The notes below the pieces were generated by a model that made no database searches, had not been told where the DNA came from, and worked only from the letters and a program-made list of their open reading frames with translations. A stretch of DNA of 2,827 nucleotides from the sequence record FN394988.1; one strand, written 5' to 3'. Below are positions 1-2,827 of the stretch, piece after piece. The stretch comes from Enterobacteria phage CUS-3. The number at the start of each line of letters is the position of its first letter. Within the stretch, counting starts at the first letter, position 1. Made by a program: the position numbers and the translations under genes.

Positions 1-543
1 ATGGCGCGCCCAACAAAGTATCAAGAGGCGTATGCCGAACAGGCACGCAAACTGTGCTTGCTGGGCTACACCGATGCAGAGCTTGCTGATTTCTTCGAAG
101 TCAGTGAGTCAACTATTAACAAGTGGAAGCTTGATTATCCTGAGTTTTCGGAGTCCATAAAAAAGGGTAAGGCCGTCGCTGATGCAGAAGTTAGTGACCG
201 TCTTTATCAACGCGCTATGGGCTTCGTGGCTCCAGACATCGATATTCGTGTTATTGAAAACAGAATTGTCGAAACTCCTCTTGAGAAGTATTACCCGCCT
301 GATACAACAGCTGCCATCTTCTGGCTTAAGAACCGACAGAAGGATAAATGGCGCGACAAGGTTGATCACGAGCTAACAGGCAAAGACGGCGGCGCAATCC
401 AGATTGAAACATCACCGATGAGTACTCTATTCGGAAAANNNNNNNNNNNNNNNNNNNNNNNNNNNNNNNNNNNNNNNNNNNNNNNNNNNNNNNNNNNNNN
501 NNNNNNNNNNNNNNNNNNNNNNNNNNNNNNNNNNNNNNTCTGA
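1..543 (+). CDS. Phage terminase small subunit (TerS, HTH-containing DNA-recognition subunit); 146 codons readable (1-438), 3' end lost in N run
   Basis: ATG at 1 in frame +1; translation MARPTKYQEAYAEQARKLCLLGYTDAELADFFEVSESTINKWKLDYPEF...AAIFWLKNRQKDKWRDKVDHELTGKDGGAIQIETSPMSTLFGK. The N-terminal RPTKY...helix-turn-helix...W(K/L)xxxPEF pattern and the FWLKNR...WRDK motif are characteristic of enterobacterial phage small terminase subunits (recalled family pattern, not searched). The stop at 541-543 lies beyond the N run, so the true 3' end is not established. Confidence 0.7.
   Translation: MARPTKYQEAYAEQARKLCLLGYTDAELADFFEVSESTINKWKLDYPEFSESIKKGKAVADAEVSDRLYQRAMGFVAPDIDIRVIENRIVETPLEKYYPPDTTAAIFWLKNRQKDKWRDKVDHELTGKDGGAIQIETSPMSTLFGKXXXXXXXXXXXXXXXXXXXXXXXXXXXXXXXXXX
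67..129 (+). other. Predicted helix-turn-helix DNA-binding motif within TerS (residues ~23-43, YTDAELADFFEVSESTINKWK)
   Basis: Helix, short turn, then recognition helix ending in a conserved Trp, at the N-terminus as in small terminase DNA-binding domains. Assigned by eye. Confidence 0.45.
439..538. other. Run of 100 N (assembly gap of conventional unknown length, or mask)
   Basis: Counted directly; exactly 100 N, not a multiple of 3. Confidence 0.99.
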
Positions 544-1762
544 GCCATGTGTAAAATATTATGATGGCATTCTGTATCTGACGACCAGGGGGACATTAAG
601 TACTCAACCCGGTAGTTCATTGCACAGAAGCTCTGATTTAGGTACATCATGGAATTCTCTTCGCTTCCCAAATAATGTTCATCACTCAAACCTTCCTTTT
701 GCCAAAGTTGGCGATGAGCTGATTATTTTTGGCAGTGAGCGCGCATTTGGTGAGTGGGAAGGAGGAGAACCTGATAACCGTTATGCAGGAAACTATCCAA
801 GAACATTTATGACCAGAGTTAACGTCAATGAGTGGAGTCTGGATAATGTAGAGTGGGTTAATGTTACTGATCAGATTTATCAGGGCGGAATAGTTAACTC
901 TGCGGTTGGTGTTGGTTCAGTTTGTATCAAAGACAACTGGCTGTACTACATTTTCGGTGGGGAAGACTTTCTAAACCCATGGAGCATAGGGGATAACAAC
1001 AGAAAATATCCTTATGTTCACGATGGTCACNNNNNNNNNNNNNNNNNNNNNNNNNNNNNNNNNNNNNNNNNNNNNNNNNNNNNNNNNNNNNNNNNNNNNN
1101 NNNNNNNNNNNNNNNNNNNNNNNNNNNNNNNNNNNNNNNNNNNNNNNNNNNNNNNNNNNNNNNNNNNNNNNNNNNNNNNNNNNNNNNNNNNNNNNNNNNN
1201 NNNNNNNNNNNNNNNNNNNNNNNNNNNNNNNNNNNNNNNNNNNNNNNNNNNNNNNNNNNNNNNNNNNNNNNNNNNNNNNNNNNNNNNNNNNNNNNNNNNN
1301 NNNNNNNNNNNNNNNNNNNNNAGCGGCGGTGAAACAACGTCTTCAGCAGATGGTGCAATGATAACGTTGCATGGTTCCGGAAGCAGTACTCCACGTCGCG
1401 CGGTATATAACGCACTCGAACATCTTTTTGAGAACGGAGATGTTAAACCTTATCTTGATAATGTAAATGCTCTTGGTGGTCCGGGAAACAGGTTCTCGAT
1501 AGTTTATCTTGGCTCCAATCCTGTGGTTACCAGTGACGGAACATTAAAGACAGAGCCGGTCTCTCCTGACGAAACATTGCTGGATGCCTGGGGTGACGTC
1601 AGGTATATCGCTTATAAATGGCTGAACGCTGTCGCTATAAAGGGGGAAGAAGGGGCGAGGATACATCATGGTGTAATCGCGCAGCAACTTCGTGATGTTC
1701 TTATTTCTCACGGACTCATGGAAGAAGAAAGCACAACATGCCGCTATGCCTTTCTTTGCTAT
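542..1762 (+). CDS. Tailspike/tail fiber with sialidase-like beta-propeller segment and C-terminal intramolecular chaperone (Peptidase_S74) domain; endosialidase-like; partial at both ends, interrupted by N run 1031-1321
   Basis: Frame +2 has no stop in 542-1030 (EPCVKYYDGILYLTTRGTLSTQPGSSLHRSSDLGTSWNSLRF...NWLYYIFGGEDFLNPWSIGDNNRKYPYVHDGH) or 1322-1762 (SGGETTSSADGAMITLHGSGSS...NPVVTSDGTLKTEPVSPDETLLDAWGDVRYIAYKWLNAVAIKGEEGARIHHGVIAQQLRDVLISHGLMEEESTTCRYAFLCY). First block has an Asp-box (SSDLGTSW). Second block matches the S74 pattern S-D-x-x-L-K ... Y-x-W-K/L ... G-x-I-A-Q. No start codon is visible: the first in-frame ATG is at 809, well inside the domain. Confidence 0.6.
629..652 (+). 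other. Asp-box (BNR) motif S-x-D-x-G-x-[ST]-W, hallmark of sialidase-fold beta-propellers
   Basis: Codons agc tct gat tta ggt aca tca tgg = SSDLGTSW in frame +2. Confidence 0.6.
1031..1321. other. Run of 291 N inside the tailspike reading frame (97 codons if length is literal)
   Basis: Counted directly; 291 = 3 x 97, and frame +2 is open on both sides. Confidence 0.99.
1532..1552 (+). other. Predicted autoproteolytic maturation site of the S74 intramolecular chaperone domain (SDGTLKT; cleavage expected after the Ser)
   Basis: In S74-domain tail fibers and endosialidases the C-terminal chaperone is released by cleavage at a conserved Ser in an S-D-x-R/x-L-K motif; SDGTLKT sits at the expected distance upstream of the YKW and GVIAQ motifs. 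Confidence 0.45.
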
Positions 1763-2179
1763 NNNNNNNNNNNNNNNNNNNNNNNNNNNNNNNNNNNNNN
1801 NNNNNNNNNNNNNNNNNNNNNNNNNNNNNNNNNNNNNNNNNNNNNNNNNNNNNNNNNNNNNNNNNNNNNNNNNNNNNNNNNNNNNNNNNNNNNNNNNNNN
1901 NNNNNNNNNNNNNNNNNNNNNNNNNNNNNNNNNNNNNNNNNNNNNNNNNNNNNNNNNNNNNNNNNNNNNNNNNNNNNNNNNNNNNNNNNNNNNNNNNNNN
2001 NNNNNNNNNNNNNNNNNNNNNNNNNNNNNNNNNNNNNNNNNNNNNNNNNNNNNNNNNNNNNNNNNNNNNNNNNNNNNNNNNNNNNNNNNNNNNNNNNNNN
2101 NNNNNNNNNNNNNNNNNNNNNNNNNNNNNNNNNNNNNNNNNNNNNNNNNNNNNNNNNNNNNNNNNNNNNNNNNNNNNNN
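1763..2179. other. Run of 417 N covering the 3' end of the tailspike gene, any intergenic region, and the 5' end of the acetyltransferase gene
   Basis: Counted directly; 417 = 3 x 139. It ends immediately before an ATG at 2180. Confidence 0.99.
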
Positions 2180-2827
2180 ATGTTGTTTTCCGTTGATGAT
2201 AATGGGTCAGGTAATGTTTTTGTATGTGGAGATCTTGTAAATAGCAAAGAGAATAAAGTTCAGTTCAATGGAAACAATAACAAACTTATTATAGAAGATG
2301 ATGTTGAGTGTCGATGGCTTACCGTAATATTTAGGGGTGATAATAATTACGTAAGAATACATAAAAACAGTAAGATTAAAGGTGATATTGTCGCAACAAA
2401 AGGTTCAAAAGTTATTATCGGTAGAAGAACGACAATAGGTGCAGGTTTTGAAGTCGTCACTGATAAGTGCAATGTTACAATTGGCCATGACTGCATGATA
2501 GCAAGAGATGTTATTTTGCGTGCATCAGATGGGCATCCTATATTTGATATTCATAGCAAAAAAAGGATTAATTGGGCAAAAGATATCATTATATCTAGTT
2601 ACGTATGGGTAGGGAGAAATGTCTCTATAATGAAAGGAGTATCTGTTGGAAGCGGATCTGTCATTGGGTATGGGAGTATTGTAACTAAAGATGTGCCATC
2701 TATGTGTGCAGCAGCCGGTAATCCAGCAAAAATAATAAAAAGAAATATAATATGGGCAAGAACGGATAAAGCGGAGCTAATTAGTGATGACAAGAGATGC
2801 TCCAGCTATCATGCGAAGCTCACGCAA
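2180..2827 (+). CDS. neuO: Hexapeptide-repeat (left-handed beta-helix) O-acetyltransferase, NeuO-like (polysialic acid O-acetyltransferase); 216 codons readable, no stop before window end, true 5' end may lie in the N run
   Basis: Frame +2 is open from ATG 2180 to 2827. Translation MLFSVDDNGSGNVFVCGDLV...IKGDIVATKGSKVIIGRRTTIGAGFEVVTDKCNVTIGHDCMIARDVILRASDGHPIFD...YVWVGRNVSIMKGVSVGSGSVIGYGSIVTKDVPSMCAAAGNPAKIIKRN shows repeated [LIV]-G-x-x-x-x hexapeptide units and the C-terminal GNPAKIIK signature of NodL/LacA/maltose-acetyltransferase-type enzymes. Position directly downstream of an endosialidase-like tailspike matches neuO in prophage CUS-3. Counting from Met 2180, residue 119 is His and 143 is Trp, which I recall (unverified) as the residues reported essential in NeuO. 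Region is clearly AT-rich. Confidence 0.7.
   Translation, partial: MLFSVDDNGSGNVFVCGDLVNSKENKVQFNGNNNKLIIEDDVECRWLTVIFRGDNNYVRIHKNSKIKGDIVATKGSKVIIGRRTTIGAGFEVVTDKCNVTIGHDCMIARDVILRASDGHPIFDIHSKKRINWAKDIIISSYVWVGRNVSIMKGVSVGSGSVIGYGSIVTKDVPSMCAAAGNPAKIIKRNIIWARTDKAELISDDKRCSSYHAKLTQ

Follow-up and report, generated by a model that had tools for sequence, protein, structure and literature searches.

An open frame shared by siaK1 and neuO in a gapped sequence record of prophage CUS-3

Within a stretch of 2827 nt from Enterobacteria phage CUS-3 (sequence record FN394988.1, analyzed at its full length and referred to here as the window), one forward frame, frame +2, contains no stop codon over most of the readable sequence, and a program-made list of open reading frames does not include it. 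A sequence-only reading had described this as an open frame running from 542 to 2827 and had placed a tailspike gene and an acetyltransferase gene within it. The question raised by the locus is what this frame encodes and why it was missed. Our analysis indicates, with a probability of about 97%, that two adjacent and well-characterized genes, siaK1 and neuO, are genuinely read in frame +2 across 539-2827.

Independent translation found no stop in any of the three readable blocks, and none after the TGA at 419-421. The start given for the open frame was one codon late: readable sequence already begins at 539, with an in-frame TCT (Ser) at 539-541. The sense codons of frame +2 number 164 in 539-1030, 147 in 1322-1762, and 216 in 2180-2827, a total of 527. 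In these blocks, each of the remaining forward frames has 8-32 stops, and each of the three reverse frames has 2-22. With the GC content of 41% and a stop-codon probability of 0.069 derived from base composition, a stop-free run of 527 codons has a probability of ∼4e-17, with values for the individual blocks of 2e-5, 3e-4, and 6e-9.

The layout of the window is that of a series of 2827-nt GenBank records produced for genotyping of CUS-3 (FN394218, FN394986-FN395002), of which it is one. It is almost certainly a composite record of this P22-like E. coli K1 prophage (Lederbergvirus), in which four sequenced amplicons, one from terS, two from within siaK1, and one from neuO, are joined by runs of 100, 291, and 417 N. 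The closest record, FN394986.1, differs from the window by a single base, at position 1379, has identical N runs, and is entitled ‘Enterobacteria phage CUS-3 partial proviral terminase gene, siaK1 gene and neuO gene, genotype GT_2’. The CDS features assigned by its depositors are terS at 1..>438, siaK1 at 539..1030 and 1322..1762, and neuO at 2180..>2827. The ten sibling records that were examined all share the length, the gaps, and an ATGT(T/C)G junction that lacks the variable repeat. These genotyping records are reportedly described by Mordhorst et al. 2009 (Environ Microbiol 11:3154), which is cited in PMC3046976.

Comparison with CP000711, the complete genome of E. coli RS218, places all four segments in this prophage. 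Identity is 100% for terS, 100% and 99.8% for the two siaK1 blocks, and 100% for neuO, with 0 or 1 mismatches per block and with consistent order and strand. The sequences hidden beneath the gaps were taken from the same genome, mapped via locus L003. The first gap, of 100 N at 439-538, is a placeholder that is not to scale; it stands for ∼17 kb of prophage in the complete genome, where terS occupies 22265-22705 and siaK1 occupies 2526-5471 on the same strand. In the window, terS (terminase small subunit, 1-438, plus strand, frame +1) has its full coding sequence apart from the stop codon; it belongs to the same record and lies outside the frame +2 finding. Its identity to CP000711 22268-22705, in which the terS CDS measures 441 nt, is 100%, and it matches PHROG 309, terminase small subunit (2.1e-68); no Pfam family was found for its residues 1-146.

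The first readable block of frame +2, at 539-1030 on the plus strand, encodes residues 487-650 of the 981 in SiaK1, part of the catalytic six-bladed β-propeller, with no mismatches to CP000711. It matches the endosialidase β-propeller family PF12217 (7.5e-104, profile positions 193-355 of 367), and residue-by-residue alignments were obtained with the structures 4hiz (1.8e-83) and 1v0e/3gvk (3.3e-80). Glu488 (542-544), Arg503 (587-589), and Arg554 (740-742), which are block residues 2, 17, and 68 in the 1v0e/3gvk alignment, are all present and align with Glu581, Arg596, and Arg647 of the K1F enzyme, for which a list of catalytic residues is available (PMC12632334). In this respect, we infer the correspondence between the PDB chain index and K1F residue numbers. 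The equivalents of K1F His350 and Arg549, which are catalytic or binding residues, fall upstream of residue 487 and outside the record.

The second block, at 1322-1762 on the plus strand, encodes residues 748-894, in which the triple-β-helix stalk finishes (1322-1531) and the C-terminal intramolecular chaperone, or self-cleaving, domain begins (1532-1762). Block residues 1-70 match End_tail_spike (PF12219, 1.2e-32), block residues 71-132 match Peptidase_S74 (PF13884, 1.4e-11), and the block aligns with PDB 3gw6 (1e-60). Block residue 70 is exactly where the mature endosialidase chains 1v0e/3gvk stop. A Ser-Lys dyad with a spacing of five residues, in which Lys follows the cleaved Ser, is known for these domains (PMC3742443), and it is present here as Ser818 (1532-1534) and Lys823 (1547-1549) within VVT-S-DGTL-K; the crystallized chain 3gw6 has Ala at the position of the dyad Ser. 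Position 1379 is the sole mismatch of this block to both CP000711 and FN394986.1: the window has G rather than A, giving Gly767 instead of Arg767 in SiaK1, and the G variant is also found in FN394993 and FN394998.

These matches identify the trimeric endosialidase tailspike, which would cut the α-2,8-polysialic acid K1 capsule. The siaK1 gene of CP000711 is intact at 981 aa, and its annotation cites direct assay evidence for endo-α-2,8-sialidase activity (IDA, PMID 16689790). Maturation of the tailspike involves self-cleavage of its C-terminal chaperone domain at the Ser-Lys dyad. The β-propeller, stalk, and self-cleaving C-terminal domain are shared with the family GH58 endosialidase tailspikes of K1-specific phages, such as endoNF of K1F (1V0E/3GVK) and the phi92 enzyme (4HIZ), with their Peptidase_S74 chaperone domain (3GW6). 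In SiaK1 of CUS-3, readable here at residues 487-650 and 748-894, both the Glu/Arg/Arg active site and the Ser-Lys dyad for cleavage are conserved. SiaK1 of CUS-3 is reported by Stummeyer et al. 2006 to be joined to a P22-like virion by an N-terminal adaptor that differs from that of these tailspikes and lies outside the window.

The third block is neuO, on the plus strand. Its start, ATG and TT at 2180-2184, is followed directly by the body of the gene for polysialic acid O-acetyltransferase, a left-handed β-helix enzyme, at 2185-2827, which ends with the last sense codon. The block has no mismatches to CP000711, where a TAA follows directly after the equivalent of the window end. It is 100% identical to PDB 3jqy, NeuO of E. 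coli K1, over residues 3-216 (214 residues, 3.4e-142), with the same left-handed β-helix hexapeptide fold and catalytic His and Trp, and it matches Hexapep (PF00132, 4e-11). OatWY of Neisseria meningitidis (PDB 2WLC) is a relative, with a match of 3.1e-31. Using zero-heptad numbering, in which His147/Trp171 become His119/Trp143 (PMC3046976), the catalytic His119 (CAT, 2534-2536) and Trp143 (TGG, 2606-2608) are both present. NeuO is the acetyl-CoA-dependent O-acetyltransferase that acts, in lysogens, on the K1 capsule that is also the target of the tailspike. The sequence-only reading had named both genes correctly, and all of the profile searches that it suggested gave positive results (PF12217, PF12219, PF13884, and PF00132).

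The claim that frame +2 is missing from the ORF list was borne out, and the explanation offered for this, that there is no ATG-to-stop pair in the readable sequence, is essentially right. The detail that needs correction is that the true ATG of neuO is readable at 2180 and the stop alone is missing. A finder that works from start to stop is silent because the record ends at the last neuO sense codon, with no closing stop; the list omits the frame because it runs off the window end and the tool lists no such ORFs. It does not follow that the genes have to be called by hand, since the very same four CDS segments are already annotated in the public sibling records.

Different explanations can be considered for a frame that appears to run through the gaps. 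When N is treated as X, frame +2 is open from 422 to the window end, and it carries across the last two gaps because 291 and 417 are multiples of 3. This unbroken frame from 422 to 2827 is what would be expected if 539-2827 were a single gene encoding a fusion of tailspike and acetyltransferase. The reference genome gives a different picture. The gap at 1031-1321 (291 N, 97 codons, to scale) corresponds to SiaK1 residues 651-747; the offset to CP000711 is 1062 on either side of it, and the reference translation beneath it is stop-free. The gap at 1763-2179 (417 N, also to scale with the reference) would, by the same comparison, hold the final 87 siaK1 codons, the TAA that ends the gene, and the intergenic region of 153 nt between siaK1 and neuO (window-equivalent 2027-2179). 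Reference frame +2 stops lie at window-equivalent 2024, 2063, 2093, 2108, 2114, and 2168, the first of them being the siaK1 TAA (2024-2026) and the other five also preceding the neuO ATG. The flanking blocks map onto the reference at a 1:1 offset with 99.8-100% identity, the annotated siaK1 product of 981 aa terminates in that gap, and the depositors annotated separate genes. A fusion protein is thus extremely improbable and has already been refuted as far as the reference genome is concerned; the frame is shared by the two genes and its continuity is not biological. An open frame arising by chance, or as a compositional effect in non-coding DNA, would account for nothing beyond the missing ORF entry, and has in effect no probability at all given the value of ∼4e-17, Pfam E-values to 1e-104, and 100% identity to a solved structure.

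The reading as two genes also has to accommodate neuO being in frame, which is so in this record only because a heptanucleotide tract is absent. CP000711 has ATGTT-(AAGACTC)x19-GTTTTCC where the window has ATGTT-GTTTTCC, and the offset to CP000711 shifts by exactly 133 nt (19 × 7) at this junction; the repeat tract, (AAGACTC)n, belongs between 2184 and 2185. In nature, slippage of this tract, two bases after the ATG, switches neuO on and off. Repeat numbers of 2 to 93 (PMC3046976) and 3 to 53 (PMC13001214) have been described, with in-frame translation only when the number is a multiple of three (PMC3046976, PMC13001214). Natural NeuO alleles carry an N-terminal RLKTQDS poly-ψ extension, in contrast with the zero-heptad form of the window record, and the length of the extension sets phase (on or off) and catalytic efficiency (PMC3046976). 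An unedited record from a source strain with a natural zero-repeat allele, phase-locked and constitutively translated, would read just as the deposited sequence does (ATGTTGTTTTCC, with the annotated start at 2180), and heptad-less NeuO is enzymatically active (PMC3046976). Such an allele nevertheless seems very improbable here. The repeat is absent in all 11 of 11 records (the window and ten siblings, from different strains and genotypes), each of exactly 2827 nt, whereas natural alleles vary over the ranges given above. A search of 157 complete E. coli genomes that carry neuO did not find the zero-repeat junction; in each of them the best match begins at query base 6. Roughly 160 complete E. 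coli genomes carry CUS-3. Leaving the tract out is established practice in typing (PMC13001214, methods). Most likely, the depositors edited the repeat out, as the records themselves suggest.

The frame owes its seamless look to the record rather than to biology. As judged from the records, the depositors seem to have padded the 291-N and 417-N gaps to the reference length, in multiples of three. The reference neuO ATG happens to share the phase of siaK1, and, with the repeat tract absent, the record shows a zero-repeat neuO that always appears in frame.

The frame +2 observation is real, yet ordinary and already known, as siaK1 and neuO of CUS-3, and nothing contradicts this identification. 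Its value for discovery is small, since the genes, structures, mechanisms, and exact record layout are all public. The case does offer some warnings for automated scanning. N-padded composite records can give rise to spurious ORFs that span gaps, and they can hide true genes whose stops have been trimmed; a frame that is continuous across gaps may be an artefact of padding by multiples of three, and removal of a phase-variable repeat can make a contingency gene appear permanently in frame.

The spacer between siaK1 and neuO that is hidden in the window was also scanned for promoters in the reference. This gave 6 consensus matches compared with 4.8 expected in shuffled sequence, and no promoter is claimed. 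A promoter-like site with 10/12 matches lies at 3197-3225 of the L003 locus, as a consensus match only.

Polymorphism among the genotype records differs between the segments. In terS, 31 of 34 variable sites are at codon position 3 (11 genotype records), which is convincing evidence of coding for that gene. The frame +2 blocks have 17 polymorphic sites, 7 synonymous and 10 non-synonymous, with no enrichment at third codon positions. With sites so few and unenriched, population data give no independent coding signal there, and the case therefore rests on homology and the open frame. Among CUS-3 genotypes, siaK1 fragment 2 (residues 748-894) has 7 amino-acid-changing and 2 silent differences compared with 5 and 29 in terS (Fisher p = 7e-4, from small counts in related sequences). 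A speculative and rather unlikely explanation for this pattern would be that the C-terminus of the tailspike is under diversifying or relaxed selection, in a resident prophage whose own host acetylates the receptor. The proportion of amino-acid-changing sites in fragment 2, 7 of 9, is close to the expectation under unconstrained mutation.

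Across the whole stretch, the last stop codon in frame +2 is the TGA at 419-421, and re-translation of all frames revealed none downstream of it to the end of the window. This independently confirms the sequence-only reading, which had described the frame as lacking stops in every readable block; it had placed the start of the open stretch at 542, one codon late, as the codon at 539-541 (TCT, Ser) can be read and belongs to the frame. Sense codons number 164 in 539-1030, 147 in 1322-1762 and 216 in 2180-2827. A run of 100 Ns (439-538) precedes these blocks, and they are separated by runs of 291 (1031-1321) and 417 (1763-2179), both multiples of three. 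The remaining five frames each hold between 2 and 32 stops within the same blocks, and an estimate from base composition gives P ~4e-17 for 527 consecutive non-stop codons. That the frame is open by chance is therefore excluded, contradicted by these statistics as well as by the homology described below. As had also been observed, the mechanical list of open reading frames has no entry here, because reading N as X leaves the frame with no closing stop before the window ends, and the tool omits ORFs that run off an end. The reasoning about frame +2 was sound.

Several entries that the list does hold are spurious. The ORF at 1..543 (+) is an artefact that crosses the 100-N placeholder and ends on a spurious TGA (541-543) inside the unrelated siaK1 fragment; the true coding sequence of terS, the terminase small subunit, is 1-438. 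Six more were rejected as genes, their length being mostly N read as X over gaps: 366-689 (-), 927-1415 (-), 1014-1361 (+), 1692-2240 (+), 1738-2196 (+) and 1759-2247 (-).

Megablast against the phage collection matched seventeen CUS-3 records of 2827 nt, titled ‘Enterobacteria phage CUS-3 partial proviral terminase gene, siaK1 gene and neuO gene, genotype GT_n’. The closest, FN394986.1 (GT_2), has identical N runs and is one base apart from the window (1379, G in the window and A in the record). It annotates the terminase small subunit at 1..>438, siaK1 in two segments (<539..>1030 and <1322..>1762) and neuO at 2180..>2827, a layout common to nine more siblings that were fetched. Because of these annotations, both frame +2 genes are already public at these coordinates, and the view that the tailspike and acetyltransferase have to be called manually does not hold. 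Earlier work already covers CUS-3 and its siaK1 and neuO genes, along with two sets of crystal structures, how the phase variation works and the exact record series.

Comparison with the complete genome reference, CP000711 (E. coli RS218), establishes how the blocks are related. There are no mismatches in 539-1030 or in the body of neuO, and a single one (1379) in 1322-1762; of the 981 residues in SiaK1, the first siaK1 block encodes 487-650 and the second 748-894. Since the offset to the reference is equal on either side of the 291-N gap, that gap is drawn to scale; CP000711 has no stop in the 97 codons beneath it. The length of the 417-N gap is likewise true to the reference, which under it contains the final 87 codons of siaK1, the siaK1 TAA at window-equivalent 2024-2026, a 153-nt intergenic spacer and, besides that TAA, five stops in frame +2. 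A single siaK1-neuO fusion ORF is excluded by this matching sequence, and the open frame therefore represents two genes; that siaK1 and the neuO ATG share a phase is a coincidence with a chance of one in three. As terS lies ~17 kb from siaK1 on the same strand of the genome, the 100-N run serves as no more than a placeholder. The 1-438 segment is the whole terS coding sequence without its stop (441 nt with it in CP000711), and the final codon of the window is the last sense codon of neuO, followed in CP000711 by TAA.

The sialidase, Peptidase_S74 and hexapeptide checks proposed with the sequence-only reading were all positive. The first siaK1 block matches the endosialidase beta-propeller family PF12217 (7.5e-104) and the solved endosialidases of phi92 (1.8e-83) and K1F (3.3e-80). 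Within it Glu488 (542-544), Arg503 (587-589) and Arg554 (740-742) align with K1F E581, R596 and R647, which are listed as catalytic (PMC12632334). In the second block, PF12219 (End_tail_spike, 1.2e-32) covers the initial 70 residues and PF13884 (Peptidase_S74, 1.4e-11) matches beyond them; mature K1F chains in the PDB terminate exactly at block residue 70, and the chaperone-domain structure 3GW6 spans this stalk/chaperone junction in alignment (1e-60). The block also contains a Ser-Lys dyad with five-residue spacing (VVT-S-DGTL-K), as is known for this self-cleaving domain (PMC3742443). The neuO block agrees with crystallised NeuO at all 214 aligned residues (3JQY, 100% identity, 3.4e-142) and has hexapeptide repeats and the catalytic His119 and Trp143. 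Given these domain, residue and structure matches, the established tailspike/NeuO mechanism would apply: the C-terminal domain would fold and release the tailspike trimer, the released trimer would degrade polysialic acid, and NeuO, switched on and off stochastically in the lysogen, would acetylate that polymer at O7/O9. Support for the endosialidase and NeuO activities themselves comes from the cited literature and from IDA annotation in CP000711. Tailspike segments 99.5-99.7% identical to CUS-3 siaK1 are also found in vB_EcoP_ZX5 (MW722083.1 4177-5400) and vB_EcoP-720R6 (ON470605.1), and the vB_EcoP_ZX5 match ends at window 1762, short of neuO.

In the reference, neuO begins ATGTT-(AAGACTC)x19-GTTTTCC, compared with ATGTT-GTTTTCC in the window, and the offset shifts at this junction by exactly 133 nt (19 x 7). 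The actual start codon of neuO is therefore at 2180, and the window lacks the phase-variable tract. Two nucleotides separate this tract from the start codon, and its copy number ranges from 2 to 93; full-length NeuO is translated only when the repeat number is divisible by three, and every three copies add one RLKTQDS heptad, each of which increases catalytic efficiency (PMC3046976; PMC13001214). The RS218 neuO is out of frame with 19 copies, and deleting a single repeat in silico allows the full protein to be read again. A natural allele with zero repeats is very unlikely, as 11/11 genotype records lack the tract and are identical in length, and the zero-repeat junction occurs in 0/157 complete E. 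coli genomes carrying neuO, where all best matches begin at query base 6. We infer instead that depositors took the tract out for typing; a 2026 study likewise dropped it from its BLAST query (PMC13001214). With the tract removed in this way, the in-frame neuO of the window does not reveal whether the gene is on or off in the source strain. Directly 5' of the missing tract, a T/C polymorphism at 2184 specifies Leu as NeuO residue 2 in four records, the window among them, and Ser in seven.

Among the 11 genotype records (window included), terS has 34 polymorphic sites in 438 nt versus 17 in 1581 nt for siaK1 and neuO, making it approximately seven times more polymorphic (p = 3e-12); terS of GT_7 (FN394991) is just 93.4% identical. 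This suggests that the packaging module is exchanged mosaically, with a nearly clonal tailspike-neuO module. Amino acid changes arise at 7/9 sites in the second siaK1 fragment (1322-1762; residues 767, 802, 807, 826, 832, 844 and 888) versus 5/34 in terS (Fisher p = 7e-4), and six of the fragment's polymorphic sites are at codon position 1. This small-count excess of replacement polymorphisms is compatible with weak constraint. Site 1379, the sole difference in this fragment from both FN394986.1 and CP000711, gives Gly767 for Arg767; G is present in 7/11 records, and the site varies in K1F too.

Using 2185-2827 as the query, neuO was found in 161/5426 complete E. coli genomes, chromosomal every time, with three copies in ExPEC XM. 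RefSeq E. coli chromosomes label it ‘acyltransferase’ or have no feature across its 5' end, and phage phiv205-1 (MN340231.1 2645-5059) labels it ‘general stress protein’. The phiv205-1 span is 2415 nt, compared with 2289 nt in the window, which implies 18 repeats and would be an in-frame allele.
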